Source: an uncultured Clostridia bacterium (GTDB lineage Bacteria > Bacillota > Clostridia > TANB77 > CAG-508). From it: 64,000 nt of DNA. The stretch lies in NCBI GenBank assembly GCA_944389125.1, contig CALXLF010000002.1, positions 164,588-228,587 of the forward strand, given 5' to 3'. The notes beneath the pieces are model-generated. The model was not told the origin of the DNA. It did not search any database and saw only the letters and a program-made list of their open reading frames with translations. Positions 1,594 through 45,322 of the stretch are shown here, one piece after another. A program made the position numbers and the translations under genes. How positions within the stretch are numbered: position 1 is the stretch's first letter; each line of letters opens with the position of its first letter.

Positions 1594-2622
1594 ATGAATA
1601 AAAAAATTAAAATCGGAATTAATGGATTTGGGAGAATTGGTAGTCTTATTTTCAGAAGGGCAGTAAAAGATGAAAATGTAGAAGTCGTCGGAATAAATGA
1701 TCCTAATATACCAATTGATTATATGTGCCATTTAATGAAATATGATTCAGCACATGGTATTTTTAATGAAAATATAAAACTTTTAGATGGAAAAATACAA
1801 GTAAATGACAGTGAAATTAAAATTTTTTCAGAAAATAATCCTAAAGATATTGATTGGAAAAGTTGTGGAGCTGAATATATAGCTGAAGCTTCTGGAAAAT
1901 TTGATAATATAGAAGGCTCATCATTACATTTTAATGGTGGAGCAAAAAAAGTAGTTATAACTGCTCCATCAAAAGATGCTCCTATGTTTGTTATGGGAGT
2001 TAACCAAAAAGAATATAAGAAAGGAACTAAAATAATTTCTAATTCATCATGTATTACCAATTGTTTAGCTCCTCTTGCAAAAGTAATAAATGATAATTTT
2101 GGGATAGAAGAGGCAATTATGACATCAGTTCATTCTGCAACTGGTGTTCAAAATGTAGTTGATGGAATTATGTATGAAGATTGGAGAGCTGGAAGAGCTG
2201 TTTTAAATAATATTATACAAACTCCAACTTATTCAGCAGAAACAGTTGGTAGGGTGATTCCAGAACTAGATGGAAAACTTCTGGGAACGGAATTTAGAGT
2301 ACCCACATTAGATGTATCTGCAATAGATGTCACAATTAAATTAAAAAAGGAAACAACTTATGAAGATATAAAAAAAGCAATGAAAGATGCTTCTGATAGT
2401 AGTGAGTTTAAAGACATTATTGAATATACAGAAGAGAAAGTTGTTTCATCAGATTTTGTTGGTGATATACATACATCAATATTTGATGCCAGTGCCGGAA
2501 TAATGATGTCACCTAAATTTGTAAAGCTTATCGCTTGGTATGATAATGAATGGAGCTATGCTTGCAAAGTAATTGATTTAATGAAATATGTTTATAAAGT
2601 TGATGAAGGAGGAAATAAATAA
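1594..2622 (+). CDS. gap: glyceraldehyde-3-phosphate dehydrogenase
   Basis: N-terminal INGFGRIGS Rossmann motif, the active-site [10 protein letters not shown] (variant of SSCTTNC) and the C-terminal WYDNEW motif. Length is 342 aa. Confidence 0.95.
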
Positions 2623-5066
2623 TGAGATATTCTAAAGAGGTTGATAGAAAATGGCAAAAAAGATGGAAAGAATCAGGATTATATAAATTTGATATTAGTA
2701 ATCTTGATAAAAAGTTTTATTCATTGGAAATGTTTTCATATCCATCAGGAGCAAGATTACATTTAGGACATTGGTTTAATTTTGCACCATCAGATTCATT
2801 TGCTAGATTTAAAAGTATGCAAGGATATAATGTTTTTCATCCTATGGGATTTGATGCTTTTGGATTACCTGCTGAGAATTATGCTATAAAAACAGGTATT
2901 CATCCAGAAGAATCAACTTTAAAAAATATAGAAACAATGAAAAGACAATTAGAAGAAATGGGAGCTAATTACGATTGGAATTATTCTGTTGAAACTTGTA
3001 TGCCAGATTATTATAAATGGACTCAATGGATATTCTTAAAACTATTTGAAAAAGGCCTTGCTTATAAAAAAGAAGCACCTGTTAATTGGTGCAAAAGTTG
3101 TAATACAGTATTAGCAAATGAACAAGTTGTAAATGGAGAATGTGAAAGATGTGGCACTATAGTAGAAAGAAGGAAAATGTCTCAATGGTTTTTTAAAATT
3201 ACTGATTATGCAGAAGAGTTATTAGAAGGATTAAAAGATTTAGATTGGCCTGAATCAACCAAAAAGGTTCAAGCAAATTGGATAGGTCGTTCTGAAGGAG
3301 CAGAAGTAAAATTTAAGATTGAAGGAAGTAAAGATGAATATTTAACAGCTTTTACAACAAGAGTTGATACATTAAATGGAGTAACATATGTTGTTATAGC
3401 TCCTGAAAGTGATATAACTTTAAAATTAACGAAACCTGAATATCTTGATGCTGTAAATAAGTACAGAGAACAAACTGCAAAAGCTTCTGATATAGAAAGA
3501 ATGTCAACCGAAAGAGAAAAAACTGGAGTATTTACAGGTTCTTATGTAATTAATCCAATTAATGGAGAAAGAGTTCCTCTTTGGGTATCTGATTATGTAA
3601 TTGAAGGTTATGGAACAGGTGTAGTTATGGCTGTTCCAGCACATGATGAAAGAGATTATGAATTTGCTAAAAAATATAATTTGAAAATAAAAGAAGTTAT
3701 AAAACCTGTAGATGGAAATGCGGAATTACCATATACTGACTATGGAATATTAATTAATAGTGGAGAATTTAATGGATTAACAAGTGCTGAAGCTAAAAAG
3801 AAAATTGTTGAAAAATTGAGTAAAACAAATGAAGGTAAACAAACAGTAAATTATAGATTAAAAGATTGGTTAGTATCAAGACAAAGATATTGGGGAGCAC
3901 CAATTCCTATTATATATTGTCCTGATTGTGGAATTGTACCTGTACCAGAAAAAGATTTGCCAGTATTATTACCTCATGATGTTGAATTTAGACCTGATGG
4001 TGAATCACCATTAAGAAAATCAAAAGAGTTTATGCATTGTAAATGTCCAAAATGTAACAAAGATGCTATGAGAGAATCTGATACTTTAGATACTTTTGTA
4101 GATTCAAGTTTCTACTTTTTAAGATATCCTGATGCTAGAAATTCTGAAAAAATATGGGATAAAGAGATAGTTGATAAGATTATGCCAGTTGATGTTTATG
4201 TTGGAGGTAAGGAACATGCTACAATGCATCTTATATATGCTAGATTTATGACAAAAGCATTAAGAGATATGGGATATGTAGACTGTGATGAACCTTTTAA
4301 GAAAATGGTTCATCAAGGAATGATTTTAGGTCCAGATGGTAATAAAATGAGTAAATCAAAAGGAAATACAGTTGCTCCTGATCCTTATGTTGACAAATAT
4401 GGTTCAGATACATTTAGAATGTATATTATGTTTGGATTTTCTTTTACAGAGGGTGGTCCTTGGAAAGATGAAGGAATACAAGCTATTGTTAAATATTTAA
4501 CTAGAGTAGAAAATTTAGCAGATAGAATACTTAATAATAAATATAAAACTAAAAATACGATAGATGATGAAGAAAAAGAATTAATTTATGTAAAAAATAG
4601 AACTATTAAAGCAATGGAAGCAGATATAGATAGATTTCAATTTAATACAGCAATAGCACGTTCTATGGAGTTTATAAATGAAATGGTAAAATATGAACAA
4701 TTACCAATAGTAAATGAGAAGCTACTTAGAGAATCATTTGAAACATATATCACTCTTATTTCTCCATTAGCTCCACATTTTTCTGAAGAAATTTGGGAAC
4801 AATTTGGACATACTGAATCTGTTCACAAAGAATTATGGCCAAAATATGATGAAAAAGAAATCGCTAAATATCAAATTAATTTGCCAATTCAAATTAATGG
4901 AAAACTTAAAACTGTAATAAAAACTAATAGAGAAGCAACAAAAGAGGATGTTAAAGAAGCAATAAAAGATGTTCCAACAATAGTACAAGCTTTAAAGAAT
5001 TTTGAAATAAAAGATGAAATATTTGTACCTCAAAAAATATTTAATATTGTTGGAAAAAAGAAATAA
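2622..5066 (+). CDS. leuS: leucyl-tRNA synthetase (native-composition copy)
   Basis: 814 aa with the HLGHWFNF class-I HIGH-type motif, a KMSKSKGN motif and CP1 editing-domain length. The start overlaps the gap stop (TAATGA). Confidence 0.95.
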
Positions 5067-5127: not shown

Positions 5128-7545
5128 TCATCTTACAACAAAGTTGATGATACGTCGAGGAACGTAAACCACTCTTTGAATGGTTTTACCGTTCAACTTG
5201 TGTGTAACATACTCTTGCGCAATGGCTTCAGCTTCAGACTGGGTGGCATTGGGATCAATTTCTATTTTGGCAATAGTTTTTCCGTTCATTTGAACAGGAA
5301 TCTCGATTTTGTCAGATGCCATTTTGTCTTTATCAGCTTTAGGCCAATGACCGGTTATAAAGATACTCTGACTATGTCCAAGCTTTTGCCAGTATTCTTC
5401 CGCTGTATGTGGAGCACTTGGTGCCATAAGACAAGCCAGTATTTCCATGACAGATGTGAGAACTTTAGAATTTCTTCCTGTGTCCAAATATCTGCCAATT
5501 TGGTTGGAGAGTTCCATCATCTTAGCAATCGCAGTATTGAATTGGAAGACCTCAAAATCACGAGTGATTTTATCAATCGCAATGTTCATAAATTTTTCGA
5601 GATCTGCTTCTTCTTTACCATACAAGTCTGAAAACTCTTTGATGGCAAAGTACCTGTTATAGTACCGATCAATTCGTTTAAAGTACTTGTTGATTGCTTC
5701 GAGCCCACTATCTGACCATGGGCCACCTTCCGTGTATTTGAATCCGAACATCAGGTATGTGCGAAATACATCGCTACCATACTTTTCTACATATTCATCT
5801 GGAGAAACTGTATTACCTTTAGATTTACTCATCTTCTGGCCGTCAGCTCCGAGAATCATACCCTGATGTATAAGCCTTTGAAATGGCTCATTAATGTCCA
5901 AATATCCTGCGTCGCGAAGAGCTTTGGTTACAAATCTGGAATAGATCAGGTGCATACAGCTGTGTTCAGCACCACCAACGTACATATCCACAGGGAGCAT
6001 TTTATTGACAATATCCTTGTCAAATGCTTTTTTGGAATTCCGCGCATCGGGATAACGAAGCTGATACCAAGAGGAACACATAAATGTATCCATAGTATCT
6101 ACTTCTCGACGTGCTTTTTTACCACAGCATGGACATGTTGTTTCTACAAATTCGCGACATTTCGCAAGAGGAGACTCTCCAGTTGGTGAAAACTCAACAT
6201 CATAGGGGAGTTCAACCGGCAAATCCTTTTCGGGGACTGGTACGATTCCACAATTATCACAATAGATAATTGGAATTGGAGCACCCCAGTATCTCTGACG
6301 TGAGATAAGCCAATCTCTCAGCCTGTAAGATATTGCTTTTCCACCGCAGTTTTTCTGCTCCAAGAAAGTGTTGATGGTTTCCTTGGCTTGGGTTGCTGTC
6401 ATGCCATTGAGGAAATCAGAATTAATCATCATTCCATCTTTGCCAATATAGACCTTTTCAGAATCATTTCCATTTGAAATAACAGTGATGATTTCGAGGT
6501 CATGTTTTTTAGCAAATTCGTAGTCTTTTTCGTCATGTGCTGGAACAGCCATAGCAATTCCAGTCCCATAACTTTCAATGATGTAATCAGCTACCCAAAT
6601 GGGAATTTTCTTCCCAGTTACAGGATTGATAGCAAATGCACCAGTGAAGACACCAGTTTTTTCGTGCTTTGTTGACTGCCTTTCAATTTCAGTCAGATAT
6701 TCAGCTTGTTTTACATAGACATTAACATCCTCCTTAAACTCGTCAGTAACAATGTCTTCCAAAGCATCATGCTCAGGAGCAATAAGAAGAGCAGTACTGC
6801 CAAATACCATTTCTGGTTTGTCAGTGAAGACTTCGAGTTCTTTACCATTTTCAGTTTTGAAAATGATTTTTGACCCCTCAGTTTTACCAATCCATGCCCT
6901 TTGCATAGCTTTTGTCTTTTCTGGCCAATCAAGATGGTTCAGGCCTTCGATGAGTTCTTCTGCATAATCCGTGATTTTCAGAAACCACTGAGACATTTTT
7001 TTTGTGTGTACTTCAGTTCCACACCGTTCGCAGCAGCCATCTTTGACCTGTTCTCTAGCCAGAACGGTTTTGCATGATGGACACCAGTTTGCTGGAGCAG
7101 ACTTTTTATATGCAAGCCCCATTTTGTAGAGCTGCAGAAATACCCATTGTGTCCATTTGTAGTATTCTGGATCACAAGTGATGATTTCTTTACTCCAATC
7201 AAACATTCCGCCCATGTCATCAAGCTGGCGTTTCATGACAGCAATATTGTGATAAGTGCTGTTTTTTGGATGTACTCCTGTCTTGATAGCATAGTTTTCT
7301 GCCGGCAGTCCAAACGCGTCAAATCCCATAGGCTGAAATACAGCATATCCTTGAAGACGTTTGAATCTAGCCCAGCTATCAACTAGGCCAAAGTTGAACC
7401 AGTGCCCCAAATGAAGCTTGGCTCCTGACGGATACGAAAACATTTCCATGACATAGAGTTTCCGCTTGATGTTGCTTTCATGGAAAGTAGCAATGCCAAG
7501 CTCTTTCCATTTAGCTTGCCAAAGCCTTTCTTTTTCCAAGTTCAT
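5128..7545 (-). CDS. leuS: leucyl-tRNA synthetase, second copy with markedly higher G+C (probable horizontal acquisition)
   Basis: 805 aa and full length, with HLGHWFNF and KMSKSKGN motifs. By eye it is about two-thirds identical to the first copy over the N-terminal 230 aa. GC is visibly about 40-45% versus under 30% for the neighbours, and the many spurious antisense ORFs are typical of GC-richer DNA. The start has an AAAGGAGAG RBS. Confidence 0.9.
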   Translation of the reverse strand: MNLEKERLWQAKWKELGIATFHESNIKRKLYVMEMFSYPSGAKLHLGHWFNFGLVDSWARFKRLQGYAVFQPMGFDAFGLPAENYAIKTGVHPKNSTYHNIAVMKRQLDDMGGMFDWSKEIITCDPEYYKWTQWVFLQLYKMGLAYKKSAPANWCPSCKTVLAREQVKDGCCERCGTEVHTKKMSQWFLKITDYAEELIEGLNHLDWPEKTKAMQRAWIGKTEGSKIIFKTENGKELEVFTDKPEMVFGSTALLIAPEHDALEDIVTDEFKEDVNVYVKQAEYLTEIERQSTKHEKTGVFTGAFAINPVTGKKIPIWVADYIIESYGTGIAMAVPAHDEKDYEFAKKHDLEIITVISNGNDSEKVYIGKDGMMINSDFLNGMTATQAKETINTFLEQKNCGGKAISYRLRDWLISRQRYWGAPIPIIYCDNCGIVPVPEKDLPVELPYDVEFSPTGESPLAKCREFVETTCPCCGKKARREVDTMDTFMCSSWYQLRYPDARNSKKAFDKDIVNKMLPVDMYVGGAEHSCMHLIYSRFVTKALRDAGYLDINEPFQRLIHQGMILGADGQKMSKSKGNTVSPDEYVEKYGSDVFRTYLMFGFKYTEGGPWSDSGLEAINKYFKRIDRYYNRYFAIKEFSDLYGKEEADLEKFMNIAIDKITRDFEVFQFNTAIAKMMELSNQIGRYLDTGRNSKVLTSVMEILACLMAPSAPHTAEEYWQKLGHSQSIFITGHWPKADKDKMASDKIEIPVQMNGKTIAKIEIDPNATQSEAEAIAQEYVTHKLNGKTIQRVVYVPRRIINFVVR

Positions 7546-40337: not shown

Positions 40338-40412
40338 TTGGCTGGGCTGGCTAGATTCGAACTAGCGCATGTCAGAGTCAAAGTCTGATGCCTTACCGCT
40401 TGGCTACAGCCC
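40338..40412 (-). tRNA. tRNA-Gln (anticodon UUG)
   Basis: Reverse complement folds as a canonical 75-nt tRNA. Acceptor TGGGCTG/CAGCCCA, D-arm GCCAAGCGGTAAGGC, anticodon loop CTTTGAC, T-arm GCTAG-TTCGAAT-CTAGC, and an encoded CCA. Confidence 0.85.
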
Positions 40413-40426
40413 AATATTTATTTTAG

Positions 40427-40504
40427 ATGGGGTGGAATGTGGGATTCGAACCCACGGTCTTCAGTGCCACAAACTGACGCGTTAACCAGCTACGCTAAAT
40501 CCAC
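40427..40504 (-). tRNA. tRNA-His (anticodon GUG) with G-1
   Basis: Reverse complement G-GTGGATT...TCAGT-TTGTGGC-ACTGA...GTGGG-TTCGAAT-CCCAC-ATTCCAC-C-CCA. The extra 5' G pairs with the C73 discriminator, and there is one U-U mismatch at 6:67. Confidence 0.8.
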
Positions 40505-42313: not shown

Positions 42314-43519
42314 ATGCAAAATAAAATAATACCAGTAACACTACTTACAGGATATTTAGGAGCTGGAAAAACTACATTATTAAATCATGTTTTAAATAAT
42401 CAAAAAGGATATAAAGTTGCAGTTATTGTAAATGATATAGGAGAAGTAAATATAGATGCAGATTTAATTGGGAAGGGAGGAGTAGTAGCTCAAACTGATG
42501 ATAGTTTGGTTCCACTTCAAAATGGATGTATATGTTGTACATTAAAAGTAGATTTAATGCAACAAATAGTTGAACTTGCTCAAACAGGAAAATTCGATTA
42601 TATATTAATTGAAGCAAGTGGAATTTGTGAACCAATACCAATTGCACAAACTATTTCTGCAATTGCTGAAGATGCTAAATCATATGGATTACCTCAAATT
42701 TGTAGATTAGATAATATTGTTTCAGTAGTAGATAGCTTAAGATTAGCTACTGAATTTGGATGTGGTTCATATTTAGAAAAAGAGACAGATGAAGAGGATA
42801 TAGAGAATTTAATTATTCAACAAATTGAATTTTGTAATGTGATTGTTTTAAATAAAGTCGATGAAATATCAAAAGAAGAATTAGAGCAAGTTAAAGCTGT
42901 TATAAGAAAATTACAGCCAAAAGCAGAAATTATAGAGACTAACTATGGAAAAGTTGATGTTTCTAAAATATTAGATACAAGATCATTTAATTTGGATGAA
43001 GTTGCTTCTTCTGCAGGTTGGATTCAAGAAATGGAAGCTGATGAAAAATTTGAAGAAGAACATGATCATGAAGATGAGGACGAACATGGTGAGCATGACG
43101 AGAAAGGAGAACATCATCATCACCATCATAACCATGAACATGGAGAAACTGAGGAATATGGAATAAGCTCTTTTGTTTACTATAGAAGAGCACCATTTGA
43201 TAGAGGTAGATTTGAAGACTTTGCAAATAATTTTCCAAAATCAGTAATAAGATGTAAAGGATTAATTTGGTTTTCAAATGAACCAAGTATTGGATATGTT
43301 TTTGAACAAGCAGGAAAACAAGTTCAAGCATTTGAATCTGGAGAATGGATTGCTTCAGCTCCTAAATATGAACAAGCTCAGTTATTAAAGGAAAATCCAG
43401 ATATAGCTGAAGATTGGGATCCTAAATATGGAGATAGAATGGAGAAGCTTGTATTTATTGGAAAGGATATGGATAAAAAAGATATCTTTGAAAAACTTGA
43501 TAAATGTTTAAATAAATAA
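42314..43519 (+). CDS. COG0523-family (CobW/YciC/ZigA-like) metallochaperone GTPase with a His-rich insert
   Basis: LLTGYLGAGKTTLLNHVL Walker A, a CICC/CxCC metal motif (NGCICCTLKVD) and the His-rich stretch EHDHEDEDEHGEHDEKGEHHHHHHNHEHGE. Confidence 0.9.
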   Translation: MQNKIIPVTLLTGYLGAGKTTLLNHVLNNQKGYKVAVIVNDIGEVNIDADLIGKGGVVAQTDDSLVPLQNGCICCTLKVDLMQQIVELAQTGKFDYILIEASGICEPIPIAQTISAIAEDAKSYGLPQICRLDNIVSVVDSLRLATEFGCGSYLEKETDEEDIENLIIQQIEFCNVIVLNKVDEISKEELEQVKAVIRKLQPKAEIIETNYGKVDVSKILDTRSFNLDEVASSAGWIQEMEADEKFEEEHDHEDEDEHGEHDEKGEHHHHHHNHEHGETEEYGISSFVYYRRAPFDRGRFEDFANNFPKSVIRCKGLIWFSNEPSIGYVFEQAGKQVQAFESGEWIASAPKYEQAQLLKENPDIAEDWDPKYGDRMEKLVFIGKDMDKKDIFEKLDKCLNK

Positions 43520-43527
43520 TTAAAATT

Positions 43528-43556
43528 AAACTCTGTTTTTTAGCAGAGTTTTTTTC
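43528..43556 (+). terminator. rho-independent terminator
   Basis: AACTCTG ... CAGAGTT hairpin followed by a T7 run. Confidence 0.65.
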
Positions 43557-43690
43557 ATAATTTTTATTAAACAAATATAAATCTTAAAAGTACATAAAAA
43601 TCACTGAATTCTTAAGTTTACATAGAACAAATTTACTGGACACATAATTTTAATACATTTTTTAAAAAATAATTTAGTCAAAAAGGTATT

Positions 43691-43772
43691 TGTGAATAAA
43701 TCATGTCGAAAAAAGTAGATAATAATAGTTATTCACAGAGTTATCCACTTTATCCACAGGCAGTTATCCACC
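43691..43772. promoter_or_regulatory. cluster of five DnaA-box-like 9-mers
   Basis: The boxes are TGTGAATAA (43691-43699; reverse complement TTATTCACA), TTATTCACA (43729-43737), TTATCCACT (43741-43749), TTATCCACA (43750-43758) and TTATCCACC (43764-43772). All match the TTATNCACA consensus with at most 1 mismatch, and they lie within a 420-bp AT-rich intergenic region. Confidence 0.6.
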
Positions 43773-43874
43773 AAAAATATGTACGAAAAGAATAAAAATT
43801 GTTAACATAAAAATTATATAAATTTTTAATTGAAAATAATGTAAAAAAATTCTAACTTAAATTAGCTAAAAGCT

Positions 43875-43902
43875 TGACAAATTAGATAAAAGATTATATA
43901 CT
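43875..43902 (+). promoter_or_regulatory. rpmF sigma-A promoter
   Basis: TTGACA, 16 nt, then TATACT. Confidence 0.5.
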
Positions 43903-43978: not shown

Positions 43979-44164
43979 GTGGCACAACCAAAAAGAAGAT
44001 GGTCAAAAGCTAGAACAGGTTCAAAAAGATCAACATGGAAATTAGAACAAAAAACTTTAGCTACATGTCCACATTGTCATGAACCAGTATTACCACATAC
44101 AGTATGTTCAAATTGTGGTTATTATGATGGTAAAGAAGTAATTTCAGTAAAAAAAGAAGACTAG
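43979..44164 (+). CDS. rpmF: 50S ribosomal protein L32
   Basis: GTG start after AAGGAGGG. MAQPKRRWSKARTGSKRSTWKL ... CPHCHE ... CSNCGYYDGKEV matches the L32 pattern, including the Zn-ribbon Cys pairs. Confidence 0.85.
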   Translation: MAQPKRRWSKARTGSKRSTWKLEQKTLATCPHCHEPVLPHTVCSNCGYYDGKEVISVKKED

Positions 44165-44431: not shown

Positions 44432-45322
44432 ATGAAAGAAAAAGTTTTATATATTGAATTACCCGAAGGTGCTAATTTTCGGGAGTTAAGACAAATAGGT
44501 GATGGTGTGCTTGGCATTGTATATGAAACAGGTCAGGTAGCTAATGAAGCTGAGAAAACAAAAAAGGCTAAGAAACGTAAAAGAACTGTAGAAATTCCTA
44601 AACCAGAACCGCTTTTTGGTGGAAGTGAAGTATATCAAAAAAATGGGTCACCATACTGGTATTGCCGAATTAAAGGTGGTAGAGATGAATTTATGCATCT
44701 TTATACACAGGATTTGACAGTAGAGGATGTTTTCTATGACTTTACGGGAAAACGAAGGTGCTATTTTTCATATCTTTATGAAAATCTTCGGGATAATTTT
44801 TTGGAAGCATTAGAAAATAAACCCAAAAGCGGGTATCGGTGGATACCTGTTTGTGATCCATCATTAGATGAGGAAGGGGAATTGCAGTTTGTTAAAGATA
44901 AGAAGATCTTAACGTATATTAGCAATATTGAGTGGGAAGAAAAAATGAAGGTATATTCCCCGGAAAATGGAAGCAGAATTAGTTCCAAAGATACTTTTTT
45001 TCTGCTGTTGTTAAGGTGGTTAAAAGACGGTGTTGCTACTCAAGAAGAGTTAGCTTACACCAGTAATGAGTCGCCAGTTTACTGGAATGATGAAAAGCTG
45101 AAAAATTTTGGAGGACTCTACAAATTTGTGGGATCAACTGGAAAGCTTGTAAGGGATTCGAATAAAGCTACAGACGGATTTATTATTGGCTGGAAGTATG
45201 ATAGGGATAATTATAATCCTAATAAATTTGCTAAAAATATATCGGAGGTTGATCGTATTACTTTTGACGGTGGAAATTTCTCCGGTAAGTATATAGTTGG
45301 TTTCCTTGAGCTTGAAAAGTAA
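44432..45322 (+). CDS. hypothetical protein (296 aa) with somewhat higher GC
   Basis: AAGGAGG RBS. The product has no recognisable motif, and GC looks distinctly above that of the neighbours. Confidence 0.5.
   Translation: MKEKVLYIELPEGANFRELRQIGDGVLGIVYETGQVANEAEKTKKAKKRKRTVEIPKPEPLFGGSEVYQKNGSPYWYCRIKGGRDEFMHLYTQDLTVEDVFYDFTGKRRCYFSYLYENLRDNFLEALENKPKSGYRWIPVCDPSLDEEGELQFVKDKKILTYISNIEWEEKMKVYSPENGSRISSKDTFFLLLLRWLKDGVATQEELAYTSNESPVYWNDEKLKNFGGLYKFVGSTGKLVRDSNKATDGFIIGWKYDRDNYNPNKFAKNISEVDRITFDGGNFSGKYIVGFLELEK

Follow-up and report, generated by a model that had tools for sequence, protein, structure and literature searches.

A dense group of DnaA boxes lies between a COG0523 gene and rpmF in a 64-kb stretch of DNA from an uncultured Clostridia bacterium (hereafter, the window), which raises the question of whether the site is part of a replication origin, an operator of the neighbouring gene or a DnaA-binding locus in its own right. 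The boxes are arranged as follows:

43691-43699, - strand: inverted DnaA box, TTATTCACA on that strand, a perfect consensus match, conserved in the clade of the window
43729-43737, + strand: DnaA box 1, TTATTCACA, perfect, invariant in the family
43741-43749, + strand: DnaA box 2, TTATCCACT, one mismatch (last base), 3 nt after box 1
43750-43758, + strand: DnaA box 3, TTATCCACA, the highest-affinity consensus, directly abutting box 2
43764-43772, + strand: DnaA box 4, TTATCCACC, one mismatch

The sequence-only reading of this DNA had reported five 9-mers with at most one mismatch within 82 bp, and all five are present at 43691-43772. The whole window contains eight perfect TTATNCACA matches, three of them inside the 82-bp cluster, while boxes with up to one mismatch are slightly under-represented (90 found versus 124 expected from shuffled sequences). 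A scan of the 64 kb revealed three or more boxes per 120 bp nowhere except in this cluster. Among 300 simulated second-order Markov sequences of 64 kb, the largest cluster within 82 bp comprised two boxes in 127 runs, three in 165 runs and four in 8 runs, and a cluster of five was never obtained (0/300); chance was rejected as an explanation. The five boxes are real and significantly clustered, and their density is exceptional against the background.

The cluster is found in the following genomic context:

42314-43519, + strand: COG0523 gene, the upstream neighbour
43528-43551, + strand: intrinsic terminator of the COG0523 gene
43773 to 43873, no strand assigned: very AT-rich stretch (GC 0.139) between the boxes and the rpmF promoter
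43874-43902, + strand: sigma-70-type promoter of rpmF (TTGACA, 17 nt, TATACT; 11/12)
43979-44164, + strand: rpmF, the downstream neighbour

The location between COG0523 and rpmF, about 100 bp ahead of the rpmF promoter, was confirmed, the last box ending 101 bp before the -35 element. The description of the intergenic region as unusually long and AT-rich did not hold for the region as a whole, which at 459 bp is the fifth longest gap between listed open reading frames and has a GC content of 0.207 compared with an intergenic mean of 0.226. It did hold for a 60-bp stretch of 6.7% GC past the boxes, which lies within 43773-43873 and belongs to the lowest 0.05% of the window; this AT-rich segment also forms the region ahead of the rpmF promoter and lacks sequence conservation. 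The window further carries recA, obg, pheST, polA and spoIVA, the first four of which lie away from the origin in B. subtilis, and this gene content does not suggest an origin-proximal region.

DnaA binding was predicted by means of the Ishikawa A-value, defined as the sum of the affinities divided by the mean gap, with at least four boxes of at most one mismatch and A > 0.3 as the threshold for stable binding. The formula was re-implemented, and the gap definition was hand-checked against two rows of Table 2 of PMC2533591. The boxes at 43729-43772 reach an A-value of 1.91, while the next best value in the window excluding these boxes is 0.04; the eight B. subtilis sites that are bound in vivo range from 0.36 to 1.64 (PMC2533591).

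We then compared the cluster with that of related loci. Relatives with COG0523 proteins of 91%, 78% and 74% identity show the same box offsets of 0/38/50/59/73, so that the conservation proposed earlier as a check is found with identical spacing at 74-91% COG0523 identity. In an alignment of nine sequences from the clade of the window, the boxes are invariant and the adjoining 13-nt spacer varies freely at a fixed length. Box 2 is invariant except for its last base in both the family and the clade alignments, and box 4 is weaker or degenerate in some relatives, with an inverted TGTGGATAA instead in most of the polC-DUF1294 branch. Both the boxes and their geometry are thus conserved across species to the exact base. 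Together with the exceptional clustering and an A-value above the B. subtilis threshold, this supports the suggestion of a secondary DnaA-box cluster.

The conservation extends beyond the boxes. The parts of the element other than the boxes are as follows:

43626 to 43850, + strand: whole non-coding element, a full-length profile HMM match
43623 to 43636, + strand: clade-conserved motif TAGAACAAATTTAC, core AACAnATnT, from the nine-sequence clade alignment
43641 to 43647, + strand: upstream flank motif CACATAA (family consensus RGTACACATAAAA), from the family alignments
43714 to 43726, no strand assigned: spacer of conserved length and variable sequence
43780 to 43790, + strand: clade-conserved motif TGTACGAAAAG, kept in 7/9 clade sequences
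43802 to 43810, + strand: downstream flank motif TTAACATAA (family consensus ARGWWAACATAAT), ~75 nt after the start of box 1

A profile HMM built from 25 family members was used with nhmmer and had just one full-length match within the window (98 bits, E = 6e-28, model positions 6-231). In the clade of the window, the conserved core spans about 43623-43810, and the non-coding element as a whole measures ~190-225 bp and is conserved in many uncultured low-GC gut Clostridia. Among the loci examined, the HMM search returned 40 full-length matches (56-136 bits), several of which are near-identical copies, and all other loci matched only at the box doublet (44 bits or less). The shared layout consists of the inverted box, a spacer of 28-29 nt, three tandem boxes with gaps of 3 and 0 nt and a fourth box, flanked on each side by ACATAA motifs. 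Of the 25 metagenome loci with an inverted box, 22 place it 28-29 nt ahead of box 1. The downstream flank reads TT(A/T)ACATAA in every clade sequence, and the motif recurs across the family. On its + strand, the window holds 25 copies of ACATAA, three of which (43592, 43642 and 43805) surround the element. The sequence-only reading had mentioned neither the wider family and its fixed geometry nor the flanking conserved motifs and the conserved Spo0A box described below.

The genes next to the element change from one locus to another. Within the clade, the downstream gene is rpmF, hpf followed by spoIIAA-spoIIAB-sigF, an unknown 568-aa gene followed by lspA, or others, and across the family glyQS, a rhodanese gene and a TetR-family gene are also found there. 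The next gene may be as near as about 190 bp or more than 800 bp away. The element stays with the 3' side of the COG0523 gene and not with rpmF. In the wider family, most of the distinct matches are located downstream of polC and a DUF1294 gene. Our results show that the element is independent of its flanking genes. Positional orthology with the ywlC cluster of B. subtilis was considered and rejected, a tsaC/ywlC-like gene being located downstream in locus L187 only.

Between the inverted box and the tandem boxes, a further putative binding site was identified:

43704 to 43713, + strand: predicted Spo0A 0A box, consisting of a perfect core TGTCGAA (43704-43710) plus AAA

Only two copies of TGTCGAA are present in the 64 kb, both strands together, and one of them is located here. 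TGTCGAAAA is invariant in 9/9 clade sequences, while the next 13 nt vary freely. The TGTCGAA core has been validated for Spo0A of C. difficile (PMC3485338), and the perfect core and its conservation among relatives are those expected of a Spo0A target site, which makes the motif a candidate site. Spo0A boxes are interleaved with DnaA boxes at oriC of B. subtilis (Boonstra 2013, as cited in PMC7561715). The two loci are alike in that a 0A box of the TGTCGAA type is embedded among DnaA boxes, but the candidate composite site described here lies away from the origin. This arrangement suggests a possible cross-talk of the sporulation master regulator with DnaA.

With moderate confidence, we therefore read the site as a conserved, autonomous non-origin DnaA-binding element that would be the Clostridial counterpart of the DnaA-box clusters (DBCs) of B. 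subtilis. Of the original interpretation, the secondary cluster is retained, the oriC or unwinding-element alternative is given up and the link to the rpmF promoter is weakened, as detailed below. The B. subtilis DBCs are located at gcp-ydiF, yqeG-sda, ywlC-ywlB, ywcI-vpr, yydA-yycS and jag-thdF (Ishikawa 2007, PMC2533591; Okumura 2012, PMC3245932), and according to PMC3245932 deletion of all six leads to early initiation. Like these clusters, the element is intergenic, falls within the range of four to eight boxes of at most one mismatch in less than 100 bp, including a perfect TTATCCACA, has an A-value far above 0.3, is situated away from the origin and is conserved among related species. 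At least one DBC, the one downstream of gcp, also follows a gene and has no known transcriptional target. In contrast to the DBCs, which belong to Bacillaceae, the element occurs in uncultured low-GC Clostridia and shows neither sequence nor positional homology to them, its rigid architecture (inverted box, 28-29 nt, three tandems) is common to about 40 loci, and it is accompanied by ACATAA on both flanks and, in one clade, by an invariant Spo0A box. As a point against this reading, most B. subtilis DBCs sit close to oriC, and the gene content of the window does not suggest origin proximity.

In E. coli, datA, DARS1 and DARS2 are non-origin loci with few DnaA boxes of mixed orientation that modulate the DnaA pool. 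An IHF site lies between the boxes of datA, much like the Spo0A box between the inverted and the tandem boxes here. However, these loci belong to another phylum, are not homologous to the element and depend on IHF or Fis, neither of which is known to be used by these Firmicutes. Their activities, hydrolysis of DnaA-ATP and release of ADP, are unpredictable from sequence.

From the sequence we infer that the element may serve in DnaA buffering, possibly gated by Spo0A. DnaA would fill all five boxes, the inverted one as well as the closely packed boxes 1-4, and assemble into a stable multi-protomer complex on ~190 bp, which would not unwind the DNA because the element has no DnaA-trios. The element might thereby take up DnaA on the chromosome, as a sink or a regulatory platform, and so help to time initiation at the true origin, and the sink would double upon replication of the locus. 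In the lineage of the window, phosphorylated Spo0A probably binds to its box in the 29-bp spacer, within the DnaA complex, and probably remodels this complex at the onset of sporulation. The occupancy by DnaA and Spo0A, a titrating or regulatory effect and the direction of the Spo0A effect are likewise predictions. As a counterpoint to the sink role, a single five-box site is a small sink.

The best of the other explanations, which we consider rather unlikely, is that the site is an operator of the next downstream promoter, here that of rpmF, under the control of Spo0A and of DnaA in the role of a transcription factor. The production of translation-related genes would then be tied to the replication status. 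The distance of 101 bp between the last box and the -35 element is compatible with such a role, a sigma-70-like promoter was found ~100-230 bp downstream in the other members inspected, and the downstream genes are often translation-related, namely rpmF, hpf (L006/L213, L155), glyQS and rhodanese-lepA. Moreover, DnaA of B. subtilis directly regulates dnaA, sda, ywlC and yydA from such box clusters (PMC2533591). However, promoter proximity is uninformative, since any intergenic region upstream of a + strand gene has a promoter, and no box overlaps one. The downstream gene varies even inside the clade of the window, the distance to it is as variable as described above, and the element tracks the 3' side of the upstream gene and not a target gene. 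The regulation of the rpmF promoter that had been suggested is thus weakened, as the same element precedes hpf, the unknown 568-aa gene and others in relatives. A separate box cluster is present by hpf in L106.

A more elaborate form of the buffering element, a Spo0A-gated checkpoint, appears unlikely to us. Here, phosphorylated Spo0A inside the DnaA oligomer, together with an ACATAA-binding factor, would switch between release of DnaA and its sequestration or inactivation, and entry into sporulation would be coupled to replication initiation via a dedicated non-origin cis-element. To our knowledge, Sda and SirA of Bacillus are lacking in Clostridia, and we know of no settled account of how replication and sporulation are coupled in these bacteria.

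The ACATAA motifs also form the basis of a reading that we hold to be more doubtful still, in which a factor recognising ACATAA would bind with DnaA as a co-factor and might organise or anchor the chromosome, e.g. in sporulation. The distances of the motifs are conserved and differ by one helical turn (87-88 or 96-97 nt upstream of box 1 across the family; ~75 nt downstream), the motifs are often repeated ~21 bp apart, and the orientation relative to the leading strand is fixed. Flanks at helically phased distances point to an additional factor outside the DnaA/Spo0A explanation. Nevertheless, the motif is short and the genomes are very AT-rich, and no part of the element is nearly as well conserved as the DnaA boxes. 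When ACATAA was compared by eye with dif/XerD arms, LexA, Rex, Fur/PerR/Zur, WalR, PhoP, SpoIIID, NrdR, parS and the B. subtilis Ter site, none of these gave a convincing fit. By the same kind of inspection, the spacing around ACATAA fits none of sigma-A, -E, -F, -G, -H and -K. A promoter inside the element was also rejected, the matches of a - strand scan falling in non-conserved bases.

It is very improbable that we are dealing with a paralogue of the dnaA-dnaN oriC2 region, be it as a vestigial, an auxiliary or a conditional origin. The five boxes include an abutting pair, as does the real oriC2 of L177, and are followed by an extremely AT-rich stretch (6.7% GC over 60 bp), and descriptions of oriC2 in Clostridia name five to nine boxes together with an AT-rich unwinding element. 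However, the AT-rich stretch also makes up the region ahead of a ribosomal-protein promoter and is not conserved in sequence. The GC skew, which had been put forward as a check, amounts to +0.25 left of the element and +0.30 right of it and does not change sign anywhere in the 64 kb. All family loci with measurable skew likewise show positive values on either side when the tandem boxes are set on the + strand. The genes on both sides of the element lie on the + strand, and no divergence of gene orientation is seen here or in any family locus. The neighbours are COG0523 and rpmF and not dnaA/dnaN, and the DnaA domain IV signature [RK]DH[ST]T[VI] has no match in any frame of the window.

According to the trio rule, a pair of DnaA boxes is followed within ~16 bp by at least three DnaA-trios (top strand CTA/TTA) (PMC8287927, PMC7561715). 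In the window, box 4 is followed by AAAAATATGTACGAAAAG, no (CTA/TTA)n repeats occur after the boxes, and no periodic NTN run was detected on either side. In contrast, trios are present directly after the boxes in C. difficile and in L177, which served as the positive control; at this position, oriC2 of L177 has CACC-TACTACTAATACTAC and the window has AAAAATATGTACG. A trio-like GTAGATAATAATAG is found before box 1 in the spacer at 43714 to 43726, but it is absent as a conserved feature in relatives, and a reading of it as DnaA-trios was rejected given that this 13-nt spacer is not conserved. The element thus resembles Clostridial oriC2 and the basal unwinding system (PMC7561715, PMC8287927) in its five boxes, its close or abutting tandems and its AT-rich neighbour, but it differs in the lack of DnaA-trios, of adjoining dnaA/dnaN and of a GC-skew switch. 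Taken together, these results show that the site is a non-origin location; oriC lies outside the window, and any origin of this replichore would be 43 kb or more upstream of the element. The earlier proposal of an oriC subregion or DNA-unwinding element is not upheld. A plasmid replicon was rejected as no match was found in PLSDB, and a phage replicon as there was only one short, insignificant phage match. Among 43 viral contigs with a box doublet, none had an inverted box at 28-29 nt or an abutting third box.

A gene product, either a 30-aa open reading frame over the boxes (43703-43795) or a small structured RNA, is hardly credible: an ATG-initiated frame of 30 codons does span the boxes in the window and an open frame is kept in some relatives, but the start codon is not conserved (ATG in the window only, GTG/TTG elsewhere, none in L088), in-frame stops occur just upstream of box 1 in L109, L189 and L187 and the frame ends at differing positions, a Shine-Dalgarno sequence is missing since the inverted DnaA box occupies the 18 nt upstream, gene callers report no gene at this place, the fold z-scores are +0.80 (+ strand) and -1.37 (- strand), no Rfam match covers the element even at E <= 1, and the spacers keep their length but not their pairing potential. 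Neither an RNA nor an open reading frame is present at the element.

Non-origin DnaA-box clusters are one of the few means by which cells tune the availability of the initiator, and they have been characterised only in a few model bacteria, namely as the DBCs of B. subtilis, as datA/DARS of E. coli and in Streptomyces. Our searches of the literature turned up no account of a locus of this kind in Clostridia. The element provides a sharply defined candidate of ~190 bp with a fixed geometry, 40 full-length HMM matches and, in one lineage, an invariant Spo0A box. Even if it were merely a passive high-affinity site it would still be a useful marker, and software that predicts origins by counting DnaA boxes would mistake it for oriC.

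All members of the element family come from uncultured organisms, and the homologues of the COG0523 and DUF1294 proteins were found in uncultured MAGs only. Among the matches listed, a genome scan with the COG0523 profile yielded mostly distant COG0523 genes of Bacteroidota, and only L006 was informative. The prfA-prmC context of the element in L188 looks like a chimeric contig.

All five 9-mers that the sequence-only reading had taken for DnaA boxes were confirmed at their exact coordinates, spanning 43691-43772, and they lie, as it had proposed, between a COG0523 gene and rpmF.

Features of the element and its flanks
42314-43519, COG0523 GTPase gene with a His-rich insert
43528-43551, intrinsic terminator of the COG0523 gene
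43691-43699, minus strand, inverted DnaA box, TTATTCACA
43729-43737, plus strand, DnaA box 1, TTATTCACA
43741-43749, plus strand, DnaA box 2, TTATCCACT
43750-43758, plus strand, DnaA box 3, TTATCCACA
43764-43772, plus strand, DnaA box 4, TTATCCACC
43874-43902, near-consensus rpmF promoter (TTGACA, 17 nt, TATACT)
43979-44164, rpmF, with its own terminator

The 82-bp cluster contains three of the eight perfect TTATNCACA matches in the window. Counted over the entire window, boxes that deviate from the consensus at one position or none are fewer than expected (90 observed vs 124 from shuffles), and nowhere else in the 64 kb do as many as three boxes fall within 120 bp. In second-order Markov simulations of 64 kb (n = 300), the largest 82-bp cluster comprised two, three or four boxes (four in 8 runs). 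Since the cluster is the only one in 64 kb and five boxes were never reached in 300 simulations, it stands above background and far exceeds chance.

More precisely, the boxes are located between the COG0523 terminator and the rpmF promoter, and 101 bp separate the end of box 4 from the -35 hexamer, in agreement with the earlier estimate of about 100 bp. The intergenic region had also been described as unusually long and AT-rich; this does not hold overall (459 bp, GC 0.207 vs an intergenic mean of 0.226), although a 60-bp stretch of 6.7% GC lies within 100 bp 3' of the boxes. The window has a GC content of ~25% and encodes SpoIVA and GerA; its source is an uncultured clostridial spore-former. 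Contigs identical to it were found in several gut metagenomes; being 100% identical, these same-species contigs are uninformative on conservation.

A graded series of COG0523 protein homologues was assembled, and the surrounding DNA was compared for several of them. The box cluster is kept at 91% (L086/L087), 76-79% (L088/L089, L212, L214, L215) and 74% (L006, L213) COG0523 identity, as well as in L109, with the same offsets as in the window (0, 38, 50, 59, and 73 where box 4 qualifies), whereas the element is absent from relatives at ≤71% identity (L090/L091, L007-L014). In the alignment of nine sequences, the inverted box, TGTCGAAAA, boxes 1-3 and TT(A/T)ACATAA are (nearly) invariant, while the 13-nt spacer from TGTCGAAAAA to box 1 is fixed in length and free to vary in sequence. 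Downstream, the window and L086 have rpmF; L088, L212 and L215 have an uncharacterised gene of 568-573 aa and then lspA; L214 has two uncharacterised genes; and L006 and L213 have hpf and then spoIIAA-spoIIAB-sigF. Since the downstream gene changes while the element stays, the conserved unit is the element, which keeps its place 3' of COG0523 and by this comparison appears not to be an rpmF regulatory region.

An exact-pattern metagenome scan for the box 1-box 2 doublet TTATTCACANAGTTATCCAC yielded at least 120 loci from many environments. The doublet 20-mer TTATTCACAnAGTTATCCAC, with the boxes 3 nt apart, is very widespread, being present in at least 120 metagenome contigs (L092-L211, GC 23-68%) and in 43 viral contigs (L216-L258). 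Because true origins are among the metagenome loci, the doublet by itself marks a strong DnaA site of a generic kind, apparently a high-affinity double site used in many origins. Among the doublet matches listed, ~25 low-GC loci have a much fuller architecture in common: the inverted box precedes box 1 by 28 nt (n = 19) or 29 nt (n = 3; 29 in the window), box 3 abuts box 2, a fourth box is usual, a RGTACACATAAAA motif lies 87-88 or 96-97 nt upstream, and one to three ARGWWAACATAAT motifs, often ~21 bp apart, start ~75 nt downstream. A profile HMM built from 25 members separates this family cleanly: it gives 40 full-length matches of 56-136 bits among the loci compared, several of them near-identical copies, and the window matches at 43626-43850 with 98 bits, while all other loci compared match at the box doublet alone with ≤44 bits. 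In a second branch the element usually comes after polC and a short YsdA-like gene (DUF1294), is followed by glyQS, by a small rhodanese gene and lepA, or by a TetR-family gene, and mostly has its fourth box inverted. All family members are from uncultured organisms. PLSDB gave no match to the element, a phage database gave a single insignificant one, and none of the 43 viral contigs with the doublet has the composite architecture. Two contigs look chimeric, and their gene contexts are unreliable: in L188 (after ~2160, element orientation) the low-GC sequence around the element runs into a truncated prfA-prmC-tsaC-glyA block, and in L101 into RHS-like and high-GC sequence.

The element is a dense array of high-quality DnaA sites with rigid geometry, kept by selection despite changing gene neighbours. 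In B. subtilis, stable DnaA binding coincides exactly with the eight regions in which A, obtained by summing the affinities of four successive boxes and dividing by the mean gap between them, exceeds 0.3 (scores 0.36-1.64); six of the eight are DnaA-box clusters outside oriC, of which some regulate their neighbours sda, ywlC and yydA, whereas a conserved one 3' of gcp is without a known target (PMC2533591). Deleting all six leads to early initiation (PMC3245932). We re-implemented the A-value from its formula and hand-checked the gap definition against two rows of the published table. Boxes 1-4 of the window reach A = 1.91 (next best value without these boxes, 0.04), and most family members score 0.4-4.3. 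The element appears to share every feature of the B. subtilis clusters that can be judged from sequence, in line with the earlier suggestion of a secondary DnaA-box cluster. Its likeness to E. coli datA and DARS is one of principle only. Our literature searches turned up no account of a DnaA-box cluster away from the origin in Clostridia.

Very probably the element is a real, conserved cis-acting site outside oriC to which DnaA binds. DnaA would assemble into a stable oligomer across all five boxes; this complex, devoid of DnaA-trios, would be non-productive for unwinding and might act as a regulatory sink or platform on initiator availability. We favour this full statement, including the regulatory role, by a small measure.

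TGTCGAA, the validated core of Spo0A sites in B. subtilis and C. difficile, occurs about once per 42 kb in perfect form in the C. difficile genome (PMC3485338). It has two copies in the 64 kb (both strands), one of which (43704-43710) falls in the interval from the inverted box to box 1 and is invariant in nine of nine clade sequences; most clade members also have a degenerate copy (AGTCAAA, ATCGAAA or AGTCGAA) ~8-10 nt before the inverted box. The perfect box is absent at that position from the polC-DUF1294 branch, which confines the Spo0A feature to the lineage of the window. Under the preferred sink or platform reading, Spo0A~P may bind inside the complex in this lineage, tying it to sporulation. 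The strongest alternative, which we consider unlikely, is that DnaA and Spo0A act through the element on the promoter downstream. Regulation of the adjacent promoter, as suggested earlier, is weakened for rpmF because the downstream gene differs among relatives.

Besides DnaA and Spo0A boxes, the element contains ACATAA and TGTACGAAAAG motifs. ACATAA(T/A) repeats flank the boxes (43592, 43642 and 43805 in the window; also, e.g., L101, L200, L209 and L176) at distances that are conserved and take values one helical turn apart; copies 3' of the boxes are often ~21 bp apart, the final one being ACATAATTGTAAT. That an ACATAA-binding factor is the principal player is improbable; we know of no regulator that matches the motif.

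A conditional or vestigial origin has hardly any probability left to it. Clostridial origins carry DnaA-trios directly after the boxes, with the boxes read in the orientation TTATCCACA, as in C. difficile (5'-CACCTACTACTATTACTACTATGA) (PMC7561715). The dnaA-adjacent Clostridial oriC2 of L177 served as positive control for a genuine unwinding module in these genomes: abutting boxes TTATACACATTATCAACA are followed by ACACC and TACTACTAATACTACTATCATTATTATTAATAA, with trios as CACC-TACTACTAATACTAC, ~150-200 nt left of the matched boxes (element orientation). In the window, AAAAATATGTACGAAAAG follows box 4 and the periodic repeat is absent on both sides of the boxes; a trio-like GTAGATAATAATAG before box 1 was rejected, as it sits in the non-conserved spacer. 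GC skew is ~+0.3 over the whole window (+0.25 left and +0.30 right of the element), almost every gene to its left and right lies on the plus strand, and no frame of the window encodes a DnaA domain IV signature. The proposed oriC or DNA-unwinding element is accordingly unsupported. With the tandem boxes set on the plus strand, each family locus that allowed a measurement has positive skew to the left and to the right; no member is an origin, and the orientation of the element relative to the leading strand is constant across the family.

The element is likewise neither a gene nor an RNA. A 30-aa ORF (43703-43795) begins with ATG in the window only, the relatives having GTG, TTG or no start codon; it is interrupted by stops immediately ahead of box 1 in L109, L187 and L189, varies in its end position, has the inverted box where its ribosome-binding site is expected, and is not predicted by gene callers. 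Folding is no better than that of shuffles on either strand (z = +0.80 and -1.37), and an Rfam search gave no match across the element at a cut-off as loose as E ≤ 1. Promoter-like matches inside it depend on non-conserved bases.

Box clusters upstream of hpf (ribosome hibernation factor) occur in three separate lineages with GC of 0.26, 0.39 and 0.32, as follows.
L006, 5799-6693, hpf-upstream box cluster
L213, 4805-5699, hpf-upstream box cluster
L155 and L106, hpf-upstream box clusters

Genes around the element include gap, two leuS, recA, obg, a polysaccharide cluster, gerA, spoIVA, pheST and polA. The long His/Glu/Asp-rich insert of the COG0523 GTPase, including HHHHHH, is typical of zinc metallochaperones, and the adjacent rpmF is of the zinc-binding type (CxxC...CxxC). 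Between rpmF and the following gene, a 296-aa ORF lacking a Pfam match (44432-45322, higher local GC of 0.31) is missing in the 91% relative L086, where a minus-strand gene directly follows rpmF; it is probably a recent insertion. A tRNA-Gln and a tRNA-His (40339-40504) lie on the minus strand amid an almost wholly plus-strand region. The two full-length leuS genes are convergent (2622-5066, plus; 5128-7545, minus); the second, on the lagging strand with GC 0.33-0.38 vs ~0.25 and reversed skew, looks horizontally acquired and its product possibly has a role in resistance or immunity.
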